Assembly: GCA_022820835.1 (NCBI GenBank)
Contig: JAJEET010000143.1
Coordinates: 9,414 to 73,413 of the forward strand
DNA length: 64,000 nucleotides
Origin: Candidatus Poribacteria bacterium
Lineage (GTDB): Bacteria > Poribacteria > WGA-4E > WGA-3G
Direction of reading: 5' to 3'
Below the pieces are notes generated by a model, which was not told the DNA's origin, did no database searches, and saw only the letters and a program-made list of their open reading frames with translations. Position 1 is the first letter of the stretch. The number at the start of each line of letters is the position of its first letter. Positions 9,334 to 60,385 of this stretch are shown here, in pieces. The translations under genes and the position numbers were made by a program.

Positions 9334-10218
9334 ATGTTTATGTTGATCTATGTCGACGGAGAATTTTTACCAAAAGCAGAGGCTAAAATTTCAGTATTCG
9401 ACCACGGGTTGCTTTATGGCGATGGTGTTTTTGAAGGGATCCGATCCTATAATGGACGTGTCTTTAAACTTGATGAACACCTCGAACGACTATACGACTC
9501 TGCAAAATCGATTATGTTACAGATCCCAATCCCGATCGAAACGATGAAAGAGACAGTCTTAGAGACGCTCCGTCGAAATCATCTCACAGAAGCCTATATC
9601 CGGTTAATCGTAACTCGCGGTGTCGGCGATCTTGGATTGGACCCAGATAAATGTCCAAAGCCGACTATCATAATTATTGCAGATAAAATCGCTTTGTATC
9701 CACAAAAATATTATGAAGAGGGTTTGGAGATCGTAACGTCTGCAGTTCGACGGAATTATGCCGAAGCCATCAATCCGCGCATTAAATCTTTGAACTATCT
9801 CAACAACATTTTAGCAAAAATTGAAGGGAAACAGGCGGGAACAGAAGAGGTACTGATGCTTAACGCTGACGGTTATGTCGTTGAATGCAGCGGCGACAAT
9901 ATTTTCTGCCTAAAGAACAACGTGCTTGTCACTCCACCGGTACATATCGGGATTTTGGAAGGCGTAACACGGAACAGTGTGATTGACCTCGCACGCGATG
10001 CCCGGATATTGGTGGAGGAGCGCGTCTTTACTCGCCACGATCTCTATATCGCTGACGAATGTTTCCTAACAGGAACCGCTGCGGAAGTTATTCCTGTCGT
10101 TAAAATTGACAGACGCGCCATCGGAGACGGACAACCCGGTAAACTTACACAGCAACTTATCGCTGCCTTCCGGCACTACGCGAATAGCTGCGGTACCGAA
10201 ATCTATGCTAAAGCATAG
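9334..10218 (+). CDS. ilvE: Class IV (fold-type IV) PLP aminotransferase, likely branched-chain amino-acid aminotransferase
   Basis: DHGLLYGDGVFEGIRSY motif and the fold-type IV length. Start placed at the internal ATG (MFMLIYVDGEF) rather than the 9259 ORF start. Confidence 0.6.
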   Translation: MFMLIYVDGEFLPKAEAKISVFDHGLLYGDGVFEGIRSYNGRVFKLDEHLERLYDSAKSIMLQIPIPIETMKETVLETLRRNHLTEAYIRLIVTRGVGDLGLDPDKCPKPTIIIIADKIALYPQKYYEEGLEIVTSAVRRNYAEAINPRIKSLNYLNNILAKIEGKQAGTEEVLMLNADGYVVECSGDNIFCLKNNVLVTPPVHIGILEGVTRNSVIDLARDARILVEERVFTRHDLYIADECFLTGTAAEVIPVVKIDRRAIGDGQPGKLTQQLIAAFRHYANSCGTEIYAKA

Positions 10219-47747: not shown

Positions 47748-48104
47748 GTGAAGGATAAAATAAAAGATGTGCAATGGGTCGGAGATTCTCGGGAACAGGT
47801 ACAGCGTTTCCCCAAACCTGCAAGAAGAACAGTAGGACAAGCACTTAATGCTGCTCAATCCGGTTTTAAACATATGGATGCCAAACCGTTACGAGGAGTG
47901 GGTCCGGGTGTATTAGAAATTATTGCCCGTTACGATACAAACACATATCGCGCTGTTTATACTGTCAAACTTGGTGAAAACATCTATGTACTTCACGCAT
48001 TTCAGAAGAAATCCACCCGCGGCATTAGTACACCCAAAAAAGAAATGGACTTGATTAAGCATCGCCTGAAAATGGCGCAAGAGATGGAGGCAAAAAATGA
48101 GTGA
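47748..48104 (+). CDS. higB: Type II toxin HigB (Gp49-like, RelE/ParE superfamily)
   Basis: IYVLHAFQKKS ... motif family. Overlaps the downstream HTH antitoxin by 8 nt. Confidence 0.7.
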   Translation: MKDKIKDVQWVGDSREQVQRFPKPARRTVGQALNAAQSGFKHMDAKPLRGVGPGVLEIIARYDTNTYRAVYTVKLGENIYVLHAFQKKSTRGISTPKKEMDLIKHRLKMAQEMEAKNE

Positions 48105-48423
48105 AGAAATCAAAATTGAGGAGAGCTCTGGCAATGTATTTCTGGACATCGGTTTCTCCAAAGTTGAGGCTGAACGTGAACAGTTAAGAGTGGATCTCGT
48201 GATTAAAATTCATCGCCTCCTCAAGGAGCTAAAACTAACCCCGGCAGAAGCAGAGACTCGCTTTGGAATTGATCCGTCTGATGTATCCCGAATACAGAAC
48301 GGAGATTTTGACTTTAATGTAGACAAACTGTTTGCGATCCTAAGCCAGTTGAACCGCAATGTTGAAATTCGTATTACACCTTCAGACGAAAAAGGTGGAC
48401 ACCTACGAGTCATTGCTTCATAG
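48097..48423 (+). CDS. higA: HigA-like antitoxin (XRE-family helix-turn-helix)
   Basis: Paired with higB. HTH region LTPAEAETRFGIDPSDVSRIQNG. Confidence 0.7.
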   Translation: MSEEIKIEESSGNVFLDIGFSKVEAEREQLRVDLVIKIHRLLKELKLTPAEAETRFGIDPSDVSRIQNGDFDFNVDKLFAILSQLNRNVEIRITPSDEKGGHLRVIAS

Positions 48424-49811: not shown

Positions 49812-51377
49812 ATGAACACCAACCTCACCGACATCGAAAATAGGCTCTGGAGTGCTGCCGATGAACTCAGAGCCAATTCACGTCTTAAGGCATCCGAATA
49901 CTCAACACCTGTCCTCGGTCTTATCTTTTTACGATACGCCGATCACAAATTTACACAGGCTGAACAAGAAATCAGCAGCGAAGCCGATCCAAACAGCCGT
50001 AGGCATCCTGACCTGAGAATGGAATGTCAAGCCCGCGGTGTACTTTATCTGACAGAGCATTCACGTTTTCAACACCTACTAAATCTGCCAGAGGGTGAAA
50101 ACATCGGACAAGCCATCACAGACGCTATGAAGGCAATAGAAGCAGAAAATTCACAAATAGAGGGCGTCCTCCCCAAAACTTACAATCGACTGGAAAAGAA
50201 TACACTCCTCGAACTCCTCCGTATCATGGAACAGATCCCTATGGACATTGAAGGAGATGCTTTTGGGAAGGTTTATGAGTACTTCCTCGGCAATTTCGCC
50301 ATGAGCGAGGGGCAACGCGGCGGTGAATTCTTCACGCCAACCTCGCTCGTCAAACTCATCGTCGAGATTATCCAACCCTTCCACGGGCGCATCCTGGATC
50401 CTGCCTGCGGATCCGGTGGAATGTTTGTCCAGAGTGCAGCGTTCATTAGCAACCACAAGAAAAATGGCACCCCCGGAGACATCAGCATTTACGGCGTGGA
50501 ACGCGTCGTTGAAACGATCAGGTTATGTAAGATGAATCTTGCCGTCCATGCGCTTGAAGGCGATATCAAACAGGCAAATAGTTACTATGAGGATCCGCAC
50601 AACTGCCTCAACAGGTTTGATTTCGTCATGGCAAATCCACCTTTTAACGTCGATCGCGTAGACAGAGAACGTATCAAAGATGATCCGCGATTCCCGTTCG
50701 GCATGCCACGCGTAGACAATGCGAATTACCTTTGGATACAACTGTTCTATAGTTCGCTCTCCGAATCTGGGCGTGCAGGTTTTGTCATGGCGAACTCTGC
50801 CGCCGATGCCCGCGCCTCCGAACTCGACATCCGTCGCCAAATTATCGAATCCGGGGCAGTTGATGTCATCGTCAGCATCGCCTCAAATTTCTTTTATACT
50901 GTTACCTTACCCTGTACGCTCTGGTTTTTCGATAAGTCCAAACGGAACAGCGATCGACACGATAAAGTCTTGTTCATTGATGCACGCCATCTCTATCAAC
51001 AAGTGAGCCGCGCACATCGGGAATTCACACCCGGACAACTCGAATTCCTTGCAAACATCGTCAGACTTTATCGCGGAGAAGCACCAGAAAATCAACACGA
51101 CAGCGCAGATTTCCTCGCCTCAAAATTCCCTGATACAGTATACATTGATGTCCCTGGACTTTGTAAGGTCGCTACGATTGCCGAGATTGAGACACAAGGT
51201 TGGAGTCTGAACCCCGGACGCTATGTCGGCGTTGACGAACAGACAACCGATGATTTCGACTTTGTTGAACGATTCACGCAGCTCAACGAGGAGTTAGCAG
51301 TACTAAATGCCAAAGCACACCAACTCGAAGAACGCATCGCCGAAAATGTTGCCAAGATTTTGGAGGATACGGTATAA
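49812..51377 (+). CDS. hsdM: Type I restriction-modification system, methyltransferase subunit HsdM
   Basis: HsdM N-terminal domain and N6-adenine MTase motifs ([15 protein letters not shown]). Confidence 0.9.
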
Positions 51378-51395: not shown

Positions 51396-51725
51396 ATGAG
51401 TGAAGAGATTAAAATTGAGGAGAGTTCTGGGAATGTGTTTTTGGATATCGGTTTCTCTGAAGAAGAGGCGGAATATCATCAGTTAAGGGTAGACCTTGCA
51501 TTTGCAATCCACCATCTTCTTGAAGAACAAAAACTAACACCAACAAAAGCAAAAGCCCGCTTTGGACTTGATCCATCTGATGTGTCCCGACTGAAGAAAA
51601 TGGACTTTACAGATTTTACCATAGAGCAGTTGTTAGTAGTTCTGAAGCGGCTGAACCGCAAGGTTGAAATTCATATTAAGCCTTCGGACAAAACAGCCAA
51701 CTACCAGCGAGTTTTTGTTACGTAA
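51396..51725 (+). CDS. HigA-like XRE antitoxin, second copy (orphan, no adjacent higB)
   Basis: First 21 aa identical to the 48097 copy and ~65% identity overall. Preceded by the last ~20 nt of higB only. Confidence 0.65.
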   Translation: MSEEIKIEESSGNVFLDIGFSEEEAEYHQLRVDLAFAIHHLLEEQKLTPTKAKARFGLDPSDVSRLKKMDFTDFTIEQLLVVLKRLNRKVEIHIKPSDKTANYQRVFVT

Positions 51726-51883: not shown

Positions 51884-52165
51884 TTGAAAATTCATGAGGT
51901 TATATGGTTATCACAATTCGTTGAGAAAATAGCGAGCAAGCATAATGTGAAAACGACAGAAGTTGAAGAAGTTTTAACTAATCGTCCGTATTTTCGACGT
52001 GTCTCCAAAGGCAATAGAGTTGGTGAAGATGTATACTCAGCTATGGGACAAACAGACGCGGGACGTTATCTCCTCGTTGTTTTCATTCTAAAATCAGATC
52101 GTCGTGCATTGATTATCAGTGCCAGAGATATGAGTAGAAGGGAGCGAAGAAATTATGGAAAATAA
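51884..52165 (+). CDS. brnT: BrnT-family (DUF497) type II toxin ribonuclease
   Basis: W..F.EKIASKHNV ... G.DVYSAMGQT ... RRALIISARDMSRRERRNY matches the BrnT motif pattern. TTG start. Confidence 0.65.
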   Translation: MKIHEVIWLSQFVEKIASKHNVKTTEVEEVLTNRPYFRRVSKGNRVGEDVYSAMGQTDAGRYLLVVFILKSDRRALIISARDMSRRERRNYGK

Positions 52166-53447
52166 AAATAAAAAACGAGATCCAATGCCGCCTCCTGATG
52201 CAACACCAGAGGAAATCGGCGAATTTTGGGACACACATGACCTCGCCGATTATTGGGAGGAAACCGAGGAAGTGGAATTTCAGGTTAACCTAAAATCGGA
52301 ACAAAATCAGGTTCAATCTGACGAAACTAAGCCTAATCCACCTGCAACCACTGAAGATTTAGTTGATGCTGCTCTCAATTTTAGCACTAATCTTCTAACA
52401 ACTCTGGATCTTCCCGCTTCAGCCCTAAAAAATGTCTATAAAGCTCTTGGTCGATTGAGTTCTGCTGCACTTGAGGTGCCCGTTGCATTTCTCGAAGGAA
52501 AAGCGGAAGAGGTTCGCGCCAAATCAGAGGGACGTGTTAAAATTATAGCAAAAGGGACTGATCAAACTATTCAACAAATGGAGGTCCCGTCGGAGTATGC
52601 ACGAATAGCAGTAGACAAATACGTAGGAAAAATAATTGGAGAACAGCTCAATCTTGATAAAATCTCCGCTATTGCTGCAAATGAACTTAAGAACAGCGAA
52701 TCCAGCAATCCAACCAATCCAGACACAAGTGCACCTAATAAAGAACAATCTTCTGATTCAACAAACCAGAAGACAAATGGTAGTGAGGAACAGATAATCA
52801 ACGACGATTGGCTCAATAGCTTTGAAACAGAAGCGCGCTCAAAAAGCACAGAAGATATGCAGCTTCGTTTTGGGCGTATCTTAGCAGGTGAGATTCAAAA
52901 ACCAGGGTCGTATTCAATAAGGGCTGTAAAACTTCTCAGCGAACTTGATCAAAATATCGCGGCTTTGTTTAAAAGATTCTGTGCAGCGTGTGTAGTCGTT
53001 GAAGTTCTTGGAATTCCAAATAGCAAACAAGTATTTGATGCTAGGGTTTTGTCTTTAGGTGGTAGCCTTATATCTAATGCTCTCAGCAAACATGGATTAG
53101 GGCTTGATCAACTTAATATATTAAACGAGTACCGTCTAATTACTTCCGGGGACATTTCTCTGCATGACCACAACTTGGCCTCTCTGTATGACTACAACTT
53201 GTGCATAGAACATGAAGACAATCCAGTGCTTTTGCCATTCCAACACCAAGGAAAACACTGGATTTTATCACCTACACCAGAACGAAATAATAACTCAGAG
53301 CTTAGATTATCGGGAGTTATGCTTTCCCGGGTCGGCCGTGAATTATTCCGCATAGTTGACCAGGATCCTATGCCAGAATATACTGAAGACCTCAAGAAAC
53401 TTTTCGCAGATCAAAAACTACAAATGGTTGAAATCCGCAACCAATGA
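52155..53447 (+). CDS. Protein with a BrnA-like N-terminal antitoxin motif fused to a ~370-aa domain of unknown function (possibly Abi-like)
   Basis: N-terminus DPMPPPDATPEEIGEFWDTHDLADYWEE is the BrnA/COG3514-type motif. The remainder has no RHH or other recognised domain. Overlaps the brnT stop by 11 nt. AT-rich by eye. Confidence 0.5.
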   Translation: MENKNKKRDPMPPPDATPEEIGEFWDTHDLADYWEETEEVEFQVNLKSEQNQVQSDETKPNPPATTEDLVDAALNFSTNLLTTLDLPASALKNVYKALGRLSSAALEVPVAFLEGKAEEVRAKSEGRVKIIAKGTDQTIQQMEVPSEYARIAVDKYVGKIIGEQLNLDKISAIAANELKNSESSNPTNPDTSAPNKEQSSDSTNQKTNGSEEQIINDDWLNSFETEARSKSTEDMQLRFGRILAGEIQKPGSYSIRAVKLLSELDQNIAALFKRFCAACVVVEVLGIPNSKQVFDARVLSLGGSLISNALSKHGLGLDQLNILNEYRLITSGDISLHDHNLASLYDYNLCIEHEDNPVLLPFQHQGKHWILSPTPERNNNSELRLSGVMLSRVGRELFRIVDQDPMPEYTEDLKKLFADQKLQMVEIRNQ

Positions 53448-53454
53448 TTTTTAA

Positions 53455-54717
53455 ATGTCAGAGGATATGTTAAGAGGTCAAAGTATGGTTCAAAAATTGC
53501 CTAAAGATTGGAAAATAAAAACTCTTGGAGAGGTGACAGATATTTTTAAGGGAGGCACCCCTAAACGAAGTGTTGAGAGGTATTTTCAAGGCGATATTGC
53601 ATGGGCAATACCAACTGATATTACTAAATTGAATGATGCATTGTACATAGACGATACCGAAACACATATAACTGAAGAAGCCCTTGGTAAGAGTTCCGCA
53701 AAATTGTTGCCAGCTGGAACTGTCCTTTTGACAAGTCGAGCAACGATTGGAAAGGTAGCAATATCTCGGATTCCTATGGCAACAAATCAGGGTTTTGCCA
53801 ACTTCTTATGCAAAGAAGAAATTGATAACCTTTTTCTCGCTTATTACCTTAAAGCGAAAACGGATTTGTTAATTTCACTTGGCACTGGAACAACATTTCT
53901 AGAGGTTACAAAAGGAAGGCTCCTTGAGGTTGAAATCCCACTACCTCCTCTCGCAACCCAACGCAAAATCGCTGCTATTCTCTCCACCTACGACGACCTC
54001 ATCGAAAACAATACACGCCGCATCAAAATCCTTGAAGACATTGCACAAACCCTCTACCGAGAATGGTTCGTACACTTCCGATTCCCCGGACACGAAAACG
54101 TCCCGATGGTAGAATCACCGTTGGGCCCGATACCACAGGGATGGCAGGTTAAGAGTTTTGGCGAGGTTTCCCTTAACTTTGATCGCCAGCGTAAGCCACT
54201 ATCAGGAAGGGTTAGGGCAAAAATGCAAGGCGAATATCCATATTATGGTGCTGCTAAAGTTTTGGATCATATCAACGATTATTTATTTGATGGCCGGTAT
54301 TTATTAATTGGTGAAGATGGTAGTGTTGTTACTAAGGATGGAAAACCTGTGCTGCAGTTAGTAACTGGAAAGCTCTGGGTAAATAATCATACACATGTTG
54401 TCCAGGGAAAGTCACCAATTTCGACAAATTTCCTTTATTTGTTCATGTCCAATGTAGCCATTTTAGGTTATGTTACCGGTTCCGCACAGCCAAAGATTAA
54501 TCAACAAAACTTGAATAGAATTCCAGTCATTTCACCTCCGCAAAAATTGTTAGAAAAATTTGACCAAATGATTGAATCCAATTTTGAAAACATTACAGCG
54601 TTAAAACTGAAAAACGCCAACCTCCGCCAAACCCGAGACCTTCTCCTCCCCAAACTCATCTCCGGCGAGATTGACGTATCCGAACTTGATATTGACCCTG
54701 ATTCTAAAAGCAATTGA
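53455..54717 (+). CDS. hsdS: Type I restriction-modification system, specificity subunit HsdS
   Basis: Two target-recognition domains separated by the conserved central helix (LPPLATQRKIAAILSTYDDLIENNTRRIKILEDIAQTLYREWF) plus the C-terminal conserved repeat. Start may be the internal Met (53485). Confidence 0.85.
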   Translation: MSEDMLRGQSMVQKLPKDWKIKTLGEVTDIFKGGTPKRSVERYFQGDIAWAIPTDITKLNDALYIDDTETHITEEALGKSSAKLLPAGTVLLTSRATIGKVAISRIPMATNQGFANFLCKEEIDNLFLAYYLKAKTDLLISLGTGTTFLEVTKGRLLEVEIPLPPLATQRKIAAILSTYDDLIENNTRRIKILEDIAQTLYREWFVHFRFPGHENVPMVESPLGPIPQGWQVKSFGEVSLNFDRQRKPLSGRVRAKMQGEYPYYGAAKVLDHINDYLFDGRYLLIGEDGSVVTKDGKPVLQLVTGKLWVNNHTHVVQGKSPISTNFLYLFMSNVAILGYVTGSAQPKINQQNLNRIPVISPPQKLLEKFDQMIESNFENITALKLKNANLRQTRDLLLPKLISGEIDVSELDIDPDSKSN

Positions 54718-54878
54718 CAGATACAACGCGAGGGTGTATAATTACAACAAGGCAATTGAGAGAACACTTGCGTATTCAATATCGACTTTCAGTGCTTTGT
54801 TAGTGATACTGGAAAGGGTTTACATGAGTAAATGGAAAGACTTAACCAGGCACGATATTCAGGAAGGAGAAGAATGAA

Positions 54879-55118
54879 ATGAACGTAACCACTGAATTAA
54901 TAACGGATCAAGAAGCACTATCAAAAGACAAGCAGCTGATCCCACCTGCTGCGACAGAGCAAGCGGAGACTGAACAAAAGGCACTTATGGACTACGCCGA
55001 GGCACAACTTCGGAAGTTATCCGCGTCTCGAGGTTTAAATTGGGATAAGATGACCGATGAGGAACGCATAGATTTTGTTGATGACCTCATCCACGAAGAC
55101 CGCGAGTGCAAACGGTAA
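54879..55118 (+). CDS. Small hypothetical protein (79 aa) overlapping the start of the downstream ATPase
   Basis: ORF only; acidic and helical. No recognisable motif. Confidence 0.3.
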   Translation: MNVTTELITDQEALSKDKQLIPPAATEQAETEQKALMDYAEAQLRKLSASRGLNWDKMTDEERIDFVDDLIHEDRECKR

Positions 55119-56305
55119 AGGTAAAATCCATGTCCGAACAGAAAGCGTTTTTAGAGAAAATTCATATCAAAAACTTCCTAAGTTTACGGAACGTTACGCT
55201 TCCACTAAAACCTCTGACTGTTCTTGTTGGACCTAATGGAAGTGGTAAATCCAATACTTTAAGATCTCTACGTCTTTCTAATGGTATGTTGAATGTTGAA
55301 ACACCTCCCACAAAGACAGATTTTCTCAGAGATCGCCTTTGGGCAGGCGGAACAGACTATATCACCTGCGAACTACACGTTAAGGTGAAGGAAGAATCAG
55401 CACAATATACATTGGTGTTTAAAGCTAACGGTGACAATCTTTCTATTGATGAAGAATTATTGGTTAACACGATTAAGGTTATCTCAATTCAGAATGGAAA
55501 AGGACATGTTTGGGATGAAGATGGCAAAAAAGAAACAAAATACACATCCAATAAACTCGCTTTGAGATCTGCTGGTGATTATGGACATAAACCAGTTACG
55601 ATTGCATTGACAGAGTTTATTCGAGGATGGGAATTTTATGACTTTCAACCAGACAACATGCGAGTTAATTTTGATAGATCTTCTTCTGCTGCAAAAGATA
55701 TTCGAGAATCGCTAAAACTTAATCCTTATGGTGTGAATGTCCCAGACATACTTTGGAATTGGTACGAGGATACCCCCGAGGATTTCCGTTATGTTAGTGA
55801 GGCCCTATCCGCTTCCACGAATATCAACATAGACTACCACAAAATTGATGGAAGATCCCAGCTCTGCCTTCTTGAAGGCTACAAGGATCCACTACCTTTA
55901 ACTGGTGCCTCTGATGGAACACTGCGCCTTCTTGCATATAACACCTTACTCAACCAATCTGAATTACCGCCGCTTATTGCCATTGAAGAACCGGAGCGAA
56001 GTTTACACCCGGGAGCATTAAAAGATATTGCATACATACTTGAAAAACTAGCTGAACGAACACAAGTAATTATCACAACACATAGCTCACAACTCCTTGA
56101 CACCTTCAGTGCTGAGAAGCTATCAAATTCATTGGGTGTTTTACTCTTACGCAACCGCCCTGGGCTCGGCACGGAAGTACTCAACATTGAGGATATCCGC
56201 GATAAGCGTGAAGCACTGGCGGGTTGGATTGCTGATTTCGGAATCGGCAGTGCCGTTTTTGACAGTGGATTGCTACAAGACCTTATGGAGGAGCCGATAT
56301 GCTAA
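55106..56305 (+). CDS. ABC-type AAA ATPase (AAA_21/OLD-N-terminal-like)
   Basis: Walker A GPNGSGKSN, ABC signature and Walker B (LLAYNTL ... LIAIEEPE), H-loop TTHS. No transmembrane or DNA-binding domain recognised. Confidence 0.7.
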   Translation: MQTVKVKSMSEQKAFLEKIHIKNFLSLRNVTLPLKPLTVLVGPNGSGKSNTLRSLRLSNGMLNVETPPTKTDFLRDRLWAGGTDYITCELHVKVKEESAQYTLVFKANGDNLSIDEELLVNTIKVISIQNGKGHVWDEDGKKETKYTSNKLALRSAGDYGHKPVTIALTEFIRGWEFYDFQPDNMRVNFDRSSSAAKDIRESLKLNPYGVNVPDILWNWYEDTPEDFRYVSEALSASTNINIDYHKIDGRSQLCLLEGYKDPLPLTGASDGTLRLLAYNTLLNQSELPPLIAIEEPERSLHPGALKDIAYILEKLAERTQVIITTHSSQLLDTFSAEKLSNSLGVLLLRNRPGLGTEVLNIEDIRDKREALAGWIADFGIGSAVFDSGLLQDLMEEPIC

Positions 56306-56862
56306 GCGTGAGAGTTTGGAATTTGCAATTGGATGGGGACGCTAAAGCAGTCAAATTTTTGGAAAATGAATTTTTGAGATTCAGGCAACTTGGAGATATC
56401 GCTATCCGAACAGCCGGAAGCAGTGCGCTTCGCAAGTGTCATGGAAAAGGCACACTTTTAGAGCGAAGGCTGAGGAAAGCGATCCAGTACTACCTCAACC
56501 AAGACGACTATATTATTTTCATCGTTGACTCTGACCAACAAGGACAATCAGAATCAAAATCACTTGTTGCGCAAATCAGATGTGTCGTTGAAGATGGAGA
56601 TTTTTCTGATAAAATCTTTTTCATGCCGGATATCCAAGAATATGGGGATTCTATACCAACAGAGTGGCAGCGCATCGTTTCGCGCTTCCGTTCTGAAGTT
56701 GAAAGTGAGCGCAAACGGTTTCGGGAGGAGTGGGATAAAACCCTCGCACACTTCCATAACGCCTTTTCCGATATTCCAGAGGAGGAAGTACTACGACATT
56801 TTGAGGAAGCACTGGCAGAGGTGAGGCGTGAACGAGCCAGAGCTGCGGATATTCACAAATAA
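56299..56862 (+). CDS. Small protein with a TOPRIM-like acidic motif (YIIFIVDSDQQG), DUF4276-like partner of the ATPase
   Basis: Overlaps the ATPase stop by 7 nt. hhhhhDxD motif following a predicted beta-strand. 187 aa. Confidence 0.45.
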   Translation: MLSVRVWNLQLDGDAKAVKFLENEFLRFRQLGDIAIRTAGSSALRKCHGKGTLLERRLRKAIQYYLNQDDYIIFIVDSDQQGQSESKSLVAQIRCVVEDGDFSDKIFFMPDIQEYGDSIPTEWQRIVSRFRSEVESERKRFREEWDKTLAHFHNAFSDIPEEEVLRHFEEALAEVRRERARAADIHK

Positions 56863-56884: not shown

Positions 56885-57199
56885 ATGATTCAAATTTCTG
56901 AACCGATAACACTTGAAAAACTATTACCACTGATACATAAGCTGCCCAAAGCTGAGCGCGAGCAACTGCGTGAATCCCTTGAAGTGGAATCACAGTTGGA
57001 TGCCGCTATTTTACTCTATCAGGAAGATAAAGTGTCCCTTGCCAGAGCCGCTGAGTTAGCAGGTATCCATCGTTTTGAATTTGAAGAGGCTTTGGCAGCC
57101 AGAGGTATCTTAAGAATCGTTGAGGTTGATTCAGCAGAAGCATCAAAAGCACGGATTTCCACTATCAAACGCCTTCACAAATCTAATCCGAACAAATGA
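56885..57199 (+). CDS. UPF0175-family small protein (antitoxin-like), no cognate PIN/DUF3368 partner nearby
   Basis: KVSLARAAELAGIHRFEFEEALAARGI motif. Overlaps the hsdR start. Confidence 0.45.
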   Translation: MIQISEPITLEKLLPLIHKLPKAEREQLRESLEVESQLDAAILLYQEDKVSLARAAELAGIHRFEFEEALAARGILRIVEVDSAEASKARISTIKRLHKSNPNK

Positions 57200-60100
57200 A
57201 TCCATACAGCGAAGACCAACTCATTGAACAACCCGCAATCCATCTACTTAAAGAAATCGGATGGGAAACGCTAAACTGCCACAGCGAATTTGAACAGACA
57301 GAAGAGAGTCCACTCGGTCGGCACACCAAATCCGAAGTCGTCCTAACTGCCCGACTGCAACCCGCGCTAAAACGCTTCAACCCGACTGCAACCGATGCTG
57401 CTATTGCCAAGGCAATTGAGGAACTGACCCACTCCCGCGCAGTTATGAGTCCGATTGAAGCCAATCGCGAGATTTATACCCTCCTGAAAGACGGCGTGAA
57501 GGTCACCCTCAGCGATCCAAACAGCGAAGACGAGACCGTTGAAGTCCTACGAGTGATTGATTGGGAACACCCAGAGCACAACGATTTCTTCGCCGCATCC
57601 CAATTCTGGATTACCGGCGAGATGTATACAAAACGTCCAGATATAGTCTGTTTCGTCAATGGAATTCCGTTAGTCCTGATGGAGTTTAAGCGGATTGATG
57701 TTCATCTCCACGCTGCCTATACCGACAACCTCCGAGACTACAAAGACACTATTCCACACCTGTTTTGGTATAACGCCTTTATTTTACTCTCTAACGGCAC
57801 GGAAAGTAAAGTCGGGAGTCTCACTGCTGAGTGGGAACACTTCGCTGAATGGAAACGCATTCACAGCGAAGACGAAACCCCTCAAACCGCCTTAGAGACA
57901 ATCCTGCACGCACTTTGCACACCCGAAAAATTGCTCGACATCGTTGAAAACTTTATCCTGTTTATGGAGGCACAAGGCGGATTCATCAAAATCCTTGCCA
58001 AGAACCATCAATACCTCGGTGTCAACAATACGATCGAATCCCTGAAACGGATTGAAGATAACCACGGCAAACTCGGTGTCTTTTGGCATACACAGGGCAG
58101 CGGGAAAAGCATCTCAATGCTCTTCTTGGCACAGAAAGTCCATAGAAAAGTACTTGGAAACTGGACGTTTGTTGTTGTAACCGATCGCAAGGAATTGGAT
58201 AACCAAACCTACAAAACCTTCGCCAGTACAAGCGGTGTGCTGACACAGCAGGAAGTGCATGCAGAAGATATAAAACATCTCCGCCGACTTCTCAGTGAAG
58301 ACCATCGTTATATTTTCACACTTATCCACAAGTTCCAGACGCAAGGTAGCGAGCAGCATCCCGTACTCTCAGAGCGGTCAGACATCGTCGTCATGACAGA
58401 TGAAGCACATCGGAGTCAATACGATACACTCGCTTTGAACATGCGTACCGCGCTCCCCAACGCCGCATTCATTGCATTTACGGGTACCCCGCTCATGGCT
58501 GGCGAAGAAAAAACAAAAGCGGTCTTCGGCGATTATGTGAGTGTCTATGACTTCAACCAATCTATTGTGGATCGCGCGACCGTGCCACTCTACTATGAGA
58601 ACCGCGTACCTACGCTACAACTGATAAATGAAGACTTCAATGCAGACATCGAACAGATCCTTGAAGATGCCGAACTGGATGAGGCACAAGAGACGAAGCT
58701 TGAACATGAATTCGCCAGAGAGTATCACCTCATTACACGAGATGACAGGTTAGAAACTATCGCTGAGGATATCGTCTCACACTTTATAGGTAGAGGCTAT
58801 CAGGGAAAAGCCATGGTCATCTCGATCGACAAAGCGACTGCTGTTAAAATGTTCGACAAAGTGCAGAAATATTGGAAGCGTTTAATTGAACAACTGAAAT
58901 CCGAAGCAGCCACGCGACACGGTAGTGAAAAGCACCACTTACAAGAGCGGATCCACTACATGGAAGAAACCGATATGGCGGTCGTCGTTTCCCCGGGACA
59001 AAACGAAATCGACGAACTCAGGCAAAAAGGCGTAGACATCACACAGCACCGCACCCGTATGAACACTGAGGATTTGGACACCCAATTCAAAGACCCCGAT
59101 GACCCCTTCCGAATTGTCTTTGTCTGTGCGATGTGGATTACCGGTTTCGATGTCCCTTCCTGTTCCACGATCTATCTTGATAAACCGCAGCGAAACCACA
59201 CTTTGATGCAGACCATTGCCAGAGCGAATCGCGTCTTCGGTGATAAAAATAACGGTTTAATTGTTGACTACATCGGCGTTTTCCGTGATCTCGAAAAAGC
59301 GTTGGCGATTTATGCTACGGGTGCGGATATAGAAGGAAACCAGAAACCGATCGCGGATAAGTCAGAACTGATTGAAAAACTCCGAGCGACGATCGCCGCA
59401 ACCACCGAGTTCTGCCGAAGTCTCGGTATTGACTTAGATGAAGCCCAAACGGACGAGGCATTCCAAAACATCACTCAAATCAATGATGCGATGGAACGTA
59501 TCTTGGTGAATGATGAAACCAAAAAGCGTTATCTGCAACTCGCAATGAACGTCACCAAACTATACAAAGCGATCCTGCCTGATCCGGATGCCCACGAATT
59601 TACCAGAATCTGTCAACTCATCCATATCATCGCACAGAAAATCAGAAATTTGACACCACCGGCTGACATCTCCGGTGTCATGACAGACGTTGAGACGGTG
59701 CTGGATCGGTCCATCGCACCAGAAGGCTATCGCATTGAGATACCAGCTGAGGGATACGATACGGAACAGATAGATCTAAGTCAGATTGATTTTGAGCAGT
59801 TAAGTGAGCGATTCAATACACAGCACAAACGCGTTGAATCGGAAAGACTCAGAGGCGCGATCAACAGTAAACTCACCGCAATGATCCGTCTTAACAGAAG
59901 TCGTATGGATTATCAGGAGAAATTTGAGGAGATGATCGCAGAATACAATGCGGGTACGATCGGTGTTTCGGATTATTTTCAGAGACTTTTTGATTTCGTT
60001 AATGATCTCCACGAAGAAGACCAACGCGCCAGTACTGAAGACCTCTCCGAAGAAGAACTGGCGGTGTTTGACCTTCTCACACAACGCGAGCCTCACTTAA

Positions 60101-60357
60101 CGGTTCCAGAGCGAGATGAAGTTAAAAATGCCGTGAAGGAAATGCTTGAAACACTCAAACGAGAGAAATTGGGCTTGGATTGGCGGAAACATACACAAAC
60201 ACGCGCACAAGTCAGGCTTGCTGTTGAAAATATACTCGATGATGAACTGCCCCAACCTTACACACCGGAACTATTTAATCAGAAATCCGAGGCGGTCTAT
60301 CAGCACATCTATGATTCTTACTACGGTGAGGGAAAAAGCATTTATACCGAAAATTAA
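57196..60357 (+). CDS. hsdR: Type I restriction enzyme, R subunit HsdR
   Basis: N-terminal nuclease region, DEAH-box helicase motifs (HTQGSGKS, VVMTDEAHRSQ, FTGTPL, QTIARANR) and the C-terminal helical domain. 1053 aa. Confidence 0.9.
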   Translation: MNPYSEDQLIEQPAIHLLKEIGWETLNCHSEFEQTEESPLGRHTKSEVVLTARLQPALKRFNPTATDAAIAKAIEELTHSRAVMSPIEANREIYTLLKDGVKVTLSDPNSEDETVEVLRVIDWEHPEHNDFFAASQFWITGEMYTKRPDIVCFVNGIPLVLMEFKRIDVHLHAAYTDNLRDYKDTIPHLFWYNAFILLSNGTESKVGSLTAEWEHFAEWKRIHSEDETPQTALETILHALCTPEKLLDIVENFILFMEAQGGFIKILAKNHQYLGVNNTIESLKRIEDNHGKLGVFWHTQGSGKSISMLFLAQKVHRKVLGNWTFVVVTDRKELDNQTYKTFASTSGVLTQQEVHAEDIKHLRRLLSEDHRYIFTLIHKFQTQGSEQHPVLSERSDIVVMTDEAHRSQYDTLALNMRTALPNAAFIAFTGTPLMAGEEKTKAVFGDYVSVYDFNQSIVDRATVPLYYENRVPTLQLINEDFNADIEQILEDAELDEAQETKLEHEFAREYHLITRDDRLETIAEDIVSHFIGRGYQGKAMVISIDKATAVKMFDKVQKYWKRLIEQLKSEAATRHGSEKHHLQERIHYMEETDMAVVVSPGQNEIDELRQKGVDITQHRTRMNTEDLDTQFKDPDDPFRIVFVCAMWITGFDVPSCSTIYLDKPQRNHTLMQTIARANRVFGDKNNGLIVDYIGVFRDLEKALAIYATGADIEGNQKPIADKSELIEKLRATIAATTEFCRSLGIDLDEAQTDEAFQNITQINDAMERILVNDETKKRYLQLAMNVTKLYKAILPDPDAHEFTRICQLIHIIAQKIRNLTPPADISGVMTDVETVLDRSIAPEGYRIEIPAEGYDTEQIDLSQIDFEQLSERFNTQHKRVESERLRGAINSKLTAMIRLNRSRMDYQEKFEEMIAEYNAGTIGVSDYFQRLFDFVNDLHEEDQRASTEDLSEEELAVFDLLTQREPHLTVPERDEVKNAVKEMLETLKREKLGLDWRKHTQTRAQVRLAVENILDDELPQPYTPELFNQKSEAVYQHIYDSYYGEGKSIYTEN

Positions 60358-60358
60358 G

Positions 60359-60385
60359 TAAGGCGCGGTTTCAAACCGCGCCTAC
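60359..60385. terminator. Palindrome AAGGCGCGGTTTCAAACCGCGCCTACC between convergent hsdR and pfp, a likely bidirectional terminator or variant of the hairpin family
   Basis: Perfect 10-bp stem GGCGCGGTTT/AAACCGCGCC. Immediately 3' of both genes. Confidence 0.55.

Follow-up and report, generated by a model that had tools for sequence, protein, structure and literature searches.

A HEC-01-like ABC ATPase and a catalytically unconstrained TOPRIM derivative in a type I restriction locus of Candidatus Poribacteria

Pairs that combine an ABC ATPase with a TOPRIM protein (OLD, Gabija, PARIS, HEC-01, Mad3/4) constitute a major theme of phage defence, and annotation takes the TOPRIM protein as the nuclease effector. 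Can the same be assumed of the pair found in a 64,000-nt stretch of DNA (the window, to which all coordinates refer unless preceded by a locus number) of Candidatus Poribacteria bacterium (GCA_022820835.1, contig JAJEET010000143.1)? A first-pass annotation had placed three open reading frames (ORFs) between hsdS and hsdR, at 54879–55118, 55106–56305 and 56299–56862, all of which are indeed there, and had proposed that an ABC ATPase and the 187-aa protein encoded by the last of them (56299–56862, hereafter S) form a split OLD/PARIS-like abortive infection module. A fourth gene, not mentioned at that time, encodes a UPF0175 protein and its stop overlaps the start of hsdR. The 79-aa ORF, the ATPase, S and UPF0175 genes, collectively referred to below as the block, are separated by −7 to +22 nt, the start of S overlapping the ATPase stop by 7 nt.

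The existence of an ABC ATPase with a TOPRIM-lineage partner in restriction loci is not new, since such pairs are catalogued as HEC-01 and resemble PARIS, OLD and Mad3/4; what is apparently undescribed is a TOPRIM derivative that is under selection yet catalytically unconstrained, has an antitoxin-like tail and alternates between PIN_3 and UPF0175 partners. The block could represent a derived, effector-less HEC-01-type module whose TOPRIM partner has turned into a non-catalytic subunit of the ATPase, a reading that, judged from sequence, we regard as evenly poised between right and wrong.

Descent and acidic site of the 187-aa protein

Direct profile searches of S gave no match to DUF4435, AriB, Toprim_OLD, RloB, DUF4276 or any HEC-01B model, three of these families (DUF4276, DUF4435 and Toprim_OLD) being those suggested by the first-pass annotation, and searches of Pfam, PADLOC and NCBIfam up to E=10 assigned no family to either S or the 79-aa ORF, their sub-threshold matches (Phage_tail_terminator_3, Smr, Toprim_2 at E=0.12, Caudo_TAP) being taken as chance. 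About 270 close homologs of S (68–100% identity) have intact frames and none carries a Pfam domain; a profile of S run against 1.84 billion representatives retrieved only 100 relatives, among which the first ~120 residues of S can be present without its last ~55, and the converse. The ancestry of the N-terminal part becomes apparent in the distant relatives, whose consensus reads W.LES.D / IFV.D.D / ELEAWLL.DC and 24 of 44 of which match both Pfam DUF4276 and PADLOC HEC-01B. A third search yielded 120 full-length relatives (~246 aa), several annotated PF14103, and BLASTP aligns residues 1–114 of S with a PF14103-annotated protein (P0349) at 41% identity (E=4e-28). DUF4276 has been placed in the Toprim superfamily, with a conserved Glu and a DxD motif (PMC12065111). 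By these alignments S is homologous by descent to a recognised Toprim family and, of the earlier TOPRIM/DUF4276 assignment, which had started from an IFIVDSD motif that is indeed present, the ancestry holds and the active nuclease probably does not.

The acidic positions of S were set by alignment to AriB residues E26, D30, D88, E90 and E122 (PMC11464382) and the family set, in S numbering, consists of E10, D14, D77, D79 and E114, plus E116. The complete EDDDEE set is kept in 117 of 119 full-length relatives; within the short clade (180–187 aa) to which S belongs, EDDDE is kept in 26 members out of 120, position 10 being occupied by Q (54), E (45), L (13), V (4), A (3) or K (1) and ranking 20th least conserved of 180 columns, while position 116 is D, G or R. 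The window copy reads Q-D-D-D-E-G (Q10, D14, D77, D79, E114, G116). Poor conservation of the acidic site among homologs, which the earlier annotation had named as evidence against its own proposal, is thus what was found, the window protein having Q10 in place of the catalytic Glu. The loss of this Glu does not correlate cleanly with the 180-aa (PIN-associated) and 187-aa (UPF0175-associated) forms of S, both of which show Q, E and L.

S does not have the appearance of a decaying gene, because its ratio of nonsynonymous to synonymous substitution rates (dN/dS, Nei–Gojobori, against the sister loci described below) is 0.19–0.27 and R5, C47, H48, Q68, D69, F107, F108, D111 and W123 are conserved in at least 119 of the 120 short-clade members. 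The short-clade rows sampled also share a conserved basic loop (AIRTAGRS.LRKCHRKG), at which the full-length clade varies. The corresponding dN/dS ratios are 0.14–0.26 for the ATPase, 0.13–0.16 for UPF0175 and 0.28 for the 79-aa ORF (against locus L002), indicating that all four are real genes under purifying selection, as opposed to chance ORFs. S therefore has the look of a pseudo-enzyme that has neofunctionalised; it seems to be neither a gene on its way out nor a working TOPRIM nuclease, and its role is probably that of an adaptor. A comparison of residues 1–25, the putative ATPase-contact region, between the short and full-length clades revealed a slight and indecisive excess of conservation (8 of 25, vs 3–6 in other segments).

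In the AlphaFold2 model the N-terminal domain shows the succession β-α-β-α-β-α-β (predicted local distance difference test score, pLDDT, 80), whereas beyond residue ~118 two long helices (121–155 and 161–185, pLDDT ~88) take the place of the C-terminal half of DUF4276. A profile of alignment A4 gave no significant match among PDB sequences. Many small proteins carry this two-helix tail (tail1) at their C-terminus, either by itself or joined to other segments of antitoxin type; some of them share the N-terminal segment ISEPITLEKLLPLI..EREQLR with the UPF0175 protein of the window, and none of the tail-only proteins belongs to a Pfam family. A second module (tail2), corresponding to the last 43–48 aa of the 79-aa ORF, is also the tail of two TOPRIM-like proteins, L003:5287–5859, followed by a truncated PIN gene, and L007:229–780, followed by a PIN_3 gene. 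Since these shuffles put tail1, tail2, UPF0175 and DUF433 in equivalent positions, the tails are read as antitoxin-type and the four would represent interchangeable C-terminal modules. Chimeras were also encountered, namely P0243 (N-domain of S fused directly to UPF0175), P0292 (tail1 fused to DUF433) and P0294 (an N-terminal fragment of the ATPase fused to tail1), and these offer evidence of frequent deletion and fusion events among the modules.

The ATPase and its place among known systems

The ATPase most likely starts at ATG 55130 (391 aa) and not at GTG 55106 (399 aa), because its homologs are 389–396 aa long with an invariant M1–S2 (they begin MSEQKAF) and because on another contig an identical sequence is annotated with a length of 391 aa, the 79-aa gene being distinct from it. 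With this start the 79-aa ORF ends 11 nt ahead of the ATPase, and the overlap formerly attributed to the two genes disappears; what stands of the proposal that this ORF is a component is that it is a selected and conserved gene of the block, full-length in L002 and L005 (77–84% identity) and preceded by an AGGAG ribosome-binding site. The motifs that had been recognised in the ATPase as being of the AAA_21/OLD type, namely Walker A (GPNGSGKS), signature (ASDGTLR), Walker B (LIAIEEPE) and H-loop (TTHS), are all present and invariant in an alignment of 21 homologs; both AAA_21 (1.3e-27) and AAA_15 (1.1e-22) are matched in Pfam, and hundreds of homologs have intact frames. The top six PADLOC matches are all HEC-01A models (2.1e-45 to 1.2e-29), followed in order by AriA (1.2e-27), AbiLi, mad3, Old (1e-21) and GajA (6e-16), the HEC-01A score being 153 bits vs 95.7 bits for AriA. 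Among solved sequences the closest is 6p74, an OLD-family protein matched at the N-terminus only (2.8e-10). A transporter or housekeeping ABC identity, the alternative raised by the first-pass annotation itself, was rejected, the NCBIfam matches to transporters, RecF/SMC and MAD3 falling far under their cut-offs. Conservation is 0.85–0.93 in the catalytic core vs 0.59–0.74 at residues 46–135 and 181–225, and these variable segments are the insert regions that have been tied to specificity (PADLOC preprint, bioRxiv 10.1101/2024.01.29.577857).

[quoted passage not shown] Its HEC-01A is the best match of the ATPase, S descends from the HEC-01B/DUF4276 family, the block is likewise embedded in a restriction locus of methylase/helicase type, and canonical HEC-01 pairs are found in L003, L062 and L064. 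The differences concern mainly S, which at 187 vs ~246 aa matches no HEC-01B model and has exchanged the catalytic Glu and the C-terminal half for a helical tail and a basic loop, as well as the extra conserved genes of the block (the 79-aa ORF, and UPF0175 or PIN_3).

With PARIS (AriA and the DUF4435 protein AriB), a system associated with the sensing of anti-restriction proteins, the block shares a two-gene arrangement of ABC ATPase and small TOPRIM-lineage protein, the AriA match and, plausibly, a logic of scaffold and release; however, AriA ranks well below HEC-01A, the lineage of S is DUF4276 and not DUF4435, and the equivalent of AriB E26 is a Gln at a position unconstrained in the clade, so that no tRNA-nuclease role can be assumed. 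OLD and Gabija GajA resemble the block in the class of their ATPase and in its association with TOPRIM, but here the genes are separate and not fused, Toprim_OLD is not matched and the two-metal site is not conserved. The Mad3/Mad4 pair of MADS also combines an ATPase with a DUF4276-lineage accessory protein within a methylation-based system (mad3, PADLOC 1.2e-23), but the NF047739 (Mad3) score is 84.6 bits vs a cut-off of 420 and S is degenerate; no other mad genes, among which mad6–8 are mandatory, are found in the window locus. In RecF–RecR an ABC-type ATPase works with a Toprim-domain protein that is not known as a nuclease, a precedent for Toprim as an interaction module; the likeness is one of analogy, drawn with a pathway (recombination repair) that is unrelated.

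Sister loci and the weighing of explanations

The census of the short clade comprises ten distinct loci (the window, L002, L003, L005, L006, L007, L065, L066, L067 and L069), to which a genome scan with the ATPase alignment contributed one close locus (L007), giving otherwise distant ATPases without family partners, and a metagenome scan one locus. The named homologs belong to Candidatus Poribacteria. S is followed by an overlapping PIN_3 gene (14 nt) in five loci (L002, L006, L007, L065, L066) and by UPF0175 in the other five (window, L003, L005, L067, L069). The DNA of the window is colinear with that of L002 (88–92% identity), except that the stretch from the S stop to the start of hsdR has been cleanly exchanged, UPF0175 in the one standing for PIN_3 in the other. 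Since neither a PIN_3 homolog nor a full-length or intact TOPRIM gene is present in the 64 kb of the window, the block would have no nuclease other than HsdR at its disposal. In seven of the ten loci the ATG of S lies inside the final Cys codon of the ATPase and overlaps its stop, a junction that is used in L003 by the full-length TOPRIM gene as well. Canonical pairs, in which a ~398-aa ATPase overlaps a full-length DUF4276-type gene of 243–252 aa, are present in Poribacteria (L003/L004), Gemmatimonadota (L062/L063) and Anaerolineales (L064), and their products match HEC-01A (1e-43 to 2e-49) and HEC-01B (~1e-6); their occurrence in three lineages, the last two outside restriction-modification (R-M) loci, marks the ATPase–DUF4276 pair as a mobile module.

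The sequence of events that would best accommodate these data can be outlined as follows. A HEC-01-type pair would have become lodged in the hsdS–hsdR gap of a chromosomal type I R-M locus; the ATPase, being intact, would presumably still act as sensor and scaffold, like AriA in PARIS, and S, as a TOPRIM nuclease paralogue, would have been turned into a subunit without catalysis. It would have kept the α/β core; gone are the catalytic Glu (Gln in the window), the ELEAW motif's second Glu and all of the C-terminal half, and new are a basic loop, which is invariant, and a pair of helices forming a tail of a kind otherwise seen on antitoxin-like small proteins. In the sister loci the ATPase would sense the trigger, S would contact the ATPase and tether or neutralise the effector through its tail as a putative toxin-binding module, and the PIN_3 RNase, likely the effector in half of these loci, would act; in the window the effector slot would be filled by the UPF0175 antitoxin-type gene.

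A more far-reaching version would see here an effector swap, in which a TOPRIM nuclease became a dead adaptor that keeps a PIN_3 RNase bound to the sensor ATPase by means of its antitoxin-like tail, giving a three-part ATPase/pseudo-TOPRIM/PIN system that bridges HEC-01 and HEC-03, the UPF0175 form of the window being an effector-less (or trans-acting, anti-toxin) derivative co-transcribed with hsdR. HEC-03 is an ABC ATPase–PIN pair in which both genes are needed for defence (bioRxiv 10.1101/2024.01.29.577857). The likeness to HEC-03 and to VapBC-like type II toxin–antitoxin (TA) pairs lies in the ATPase, S, overlapping PIN_3 order of sister loci and in the antitoxin-type character of the S tail and UPF0175; the differences are that S stands between ATPase and PIN in those loci, whose PIN_3 proteins match no HEC-03 model, and that the window is without a PIN gene and thus without the type II TA layout (PIN toxin directly 3′ of an antitoxin-type gene) displayed by L002, L006, L007, L065 and L066. 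We consider this version tentative and, as it stands, unlikely.

Several observations weigh against the conversion of S into an ATPase subunit within a defence module. In the published assay HEC-01 failed to protect against any phage tried (Payne et al., bioRxiv 10.1101/2024.01.29.577857) and has the status of a candidate system, as has, for defence, the HEC-01-type block. D14, D77, D79 and E114 are ~86–91% conserved in the short clade which, together with the 26 members that keep the full set, means that S may have retained some metal binding or nuclease activity, while searches with the predicted fold recovered no TOPRIM structure. Tail1 is equally conserved whether PIN_3 or UPF0175 lies downstream, which disfavours a partner-specific contact. 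Furthermore, every locus with S belongs to a single phylum, and most represent one syntenic locus, so that the adjacency of S and ATPase is in large part inherited. Finally, the identities of ATPase and S are discordant between loci (e.g., 59% and 83%, respectively, in L066), and S may belong with the downstream gene rather than with the ATPase, because L069 contains S and UPF0175 without any ATPase and because the ATPase is followed first by a full-length TOPRIM gene and then by S in L003 and L067. In L067 (4247–4991), as in L068 (1–366), the 243-aa TOPRIM gene that lies between ATPase and S falls into two frames (127 + 122 aa), which reflects either a genuine frameshift, and thus decay of the nuclease in the presence of S, or an error of long-read assembly; the coverage of L068 is 1.83x and its hsdR is split as well.

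It is these last observations that nourish the main rival explanation, namely that two unrelated units are juxtaposed, S and its PIN_3 or UPF0175 neighbour forming a TA-like pair with S as antitoxin-type member, and the ATPase being a HEC-01 leftover that came to abut S upon deletion of the full-length TOPRIM gene. The constancy of the downstream partner (ten loci out of ten), an overlap of 14 nt with PIN_3 like that of type II TA pairs, and the pairing of a second TOPRIM-like-plus-tail2 protein with PIN genes away from any adjacent ATPase (L007:229–1178) all argue in the same direction. Such an accidental encounter would hardly predict, on the other hand, that S should use in seven loci the very ATG-in-Cys-codon junction of the full-length gene, that ATPase, S and PIN_3 should move as a block with the promoter directly ahead of the ATPase (L007, L065), or that an ATPase deprived of its partner should remain under purifying selection with its motifs intact. 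This explanation is possible, if unlikely.

The identity originally proposed, an active two-gene OLD/PARIS-like system in which the ATPase senses a trigger (e.g., an anti-restriction protein) and releases S as a TOPRIM nuclease, draws on the AriA and Old matches of the ATPase, on the TOPRIM descent of S with its four retained acidic residues, and on the translational coupling of the two genes within an R-M locus. It does not survive well the finding that the partner is of DUF4276 lineage, has lost the C-terminal half of that family and carries Q10 at a position without constraint, given that the equivalent E26A substitution in AriB abolishes PARIS defence (PMC11464382); the ATPase being closest to HEC-01A, the lack of profile matches of S to any of the nuclease families searched and the outcome of the fold searches also contribute to making it distinctly improbable.

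Very improbable is also that the block serves the type I R-M system as an accessory regulator, affecting for instance the expression or activity of HsdR (restriction alleviation) with no defence of its own. A consensus promoter heading the block, the continuity with hsdR, the basic loop of S and the absence of an effector gene from the window would suit such a regulator, but ATPase, S and PIN_3 lie away from hsdR in L007 and L065, canonical ATPase–DUF4276 pairs can be found with no R-M genes around them and the same slot can hold unrelated defence cargo (NACHT). That the block is the non-functional remnant of a decayed cassette, as the lost catalytic residues, the missing effector and the insertion sequence (IS) elements and split genes of some sister loci might insinuate, is hardly credible in view of dN/dS values of 0.13–0.28 for all four genes, of the intact frames of ~270 S and hundreds of ATPase homologs and of the many invariant residues of S.

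Promoter, flanking genes and changing cargo

The coordinates of the block and of its surroundings are collected in the table. The derived HEC-01-type module favoured here is headed by an exact TTGACA-17-TATAAT element. Each of the ten Poribacteria loci has this element where its cargo begins on the 5′ side, the spacer being largely conserved, and in the window the stop codon of hsdS falls within the −35 hexamer. The element is kept regardless of what precedes it (hsdS, NACHT or non-R-M genes) or follows it (the 79-aa ORF, a 322-aa protein or the ATPase directly), and ATPase, S and PIN_3 are accompanied by their own copy also in L007 and L065, where they lie outside the hsdS–hsdR interval. Judging from its sequence this element would act as a promoter, and it may also delimit the cassette or serve as a landmark for recombination. 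No convincing terminator was found between 54742 and 57196, and the block is probably co-transcribed with hsdR.

Features of the window locus and copies of the consensus promoter in sister loci
Feature	Position	Strand	Remarks
hsdM	49812–51377	+	context gene
HTH_37 gene	51396–51725	+	Pfam
BrnT	51884–52165	+	Pfam
430-aa DUF2806 protein	52155–53447	+	Pfam
hsdS	53455–54717	+	Methylase_S 2.8e-50
predicted sigma-70 consensus promoter	54714–54742	+	TTGACA-17-TATAAT, 12/12; marks 5′ edge of cargo block
79-aa ORF	54879–55118	+	unique N-terminus and C-terminal tail2 module (LSASRGLNWDKMTDEERIDFVDDLIHEDRE)
ABC ATPase, HEC-01A type, 391 aa	55130–56305	+	open frame reaches upstream to GTG 55106 (399 aa)
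S, N-terminal domain, residues 1–118	56299–56652	+	TOPRIM/DUF4276-derived α/β, degenerate acidic site, clade-specific basic loop AIRTAGSSALRKCHGKG
S, C-terminal two-helix tail (tail1)	56662–56862	+	W..EW...AHFH.AF..PEEEV..FEEALAEVRRER; takes place of DUF4276 C-terminal half
UPF0175 antitoxin-type gene, 104 aa	56885–57199	+	UPF0175 2.4e-12; PADLOC PDC-S70 5.9e-7
hsdR	57196–60357	+	Pfam HSDR_N, SWI2_SNF2, T1RH-like_C
promoter copies	L002:6109–6137, L003:4050–4078, L005:6362–6390, L007:6943–6971		TTGACA-17-TATAAT
promoter copies	L065:3753–3781, L066:3511–3539, L067:1975–2003, L069:3860–3888		TTGACA-17-TATAAT

At the opposite end, between the convergent hsdR and PFK genes, a strong GC-rich hairpin (60361–60383; 10 bp stem, 7 GC pairs) likely represents a bidirectional terminator closing the operon. 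Within the slot, L005 harbours upstream of the 79-aa ORF an 824-aa NACHT/STAND NTPase (L005:3891–6365; NACHT 1.5e-12), which indicates that the hsdS–hsdR gap collects different defence-type cargo. A 322-aa protein without Pfam family and with a weak PADLOC "putative invertase" match (1.4e-6) is encoded directly 3′ of the conserved promoter in L003 (4146–5114), L067 (2072–3028) and L069 (3957–4925), a fragment being left at L002:6503–6796. IS elements (HTH_Tnp_1 + rve; DDE_Tnp_1; DDE_3) interrupt hsdS, hsdM and hsdR (L003:2676–3802; L006:4929–5819 and 9635–10150); the R-M system is decaying in some sister genomes, in which the ATPase–S–PIN_3 block is intact.

Other small modules lie upstream. 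The BrnT gene between hsdM and hsdS overlaps the gene of the 430-aa protein, the N-terminus of which is weakly similar to CopG_antitoxin (BrnA-like, E=4e-4) and the C-terminus to DUF2806 (3.9e-23), another case of an antitoxin-type segment fused to a larger domain; the BrnT/DUF2806 pair is found also in L004 and DUF2806 alone in L005. Two genes of the HTH_37 family share almost the same N-terminus (MSEEIKIEESSGNVFLDIGFS...): the first (47748–48423 region) is overlapped by an upstream 118-aa ORF (47748–48104), a Gp49 gene preceding HTH_37 in sister loci, and the second is an orphan directly after hsdM. They may have originated by duplication of an antitoxin or serve, on either side of hsdM, as a substrate for recombination.

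What, then, is the significance of this locus? The type I R-M loci of Poribacteria contain a conserved hot-spot in which a perfect consensus promoter is followed by changing defence cargo, and within this cargo the short S lineage, with its ~270 close homologs, is a partner kept by selection after the loss of catalytic constraint and consistently accompanied by a PIN_3 or an antitoxin-type gene. This calls for caution in annotating such ATPase–TOPRIM pairs as nucleases on the basis of gene order alone. Should the change of role be true, it would mean that in these systems effectors are exchangeable while the sensor ATPase stays.

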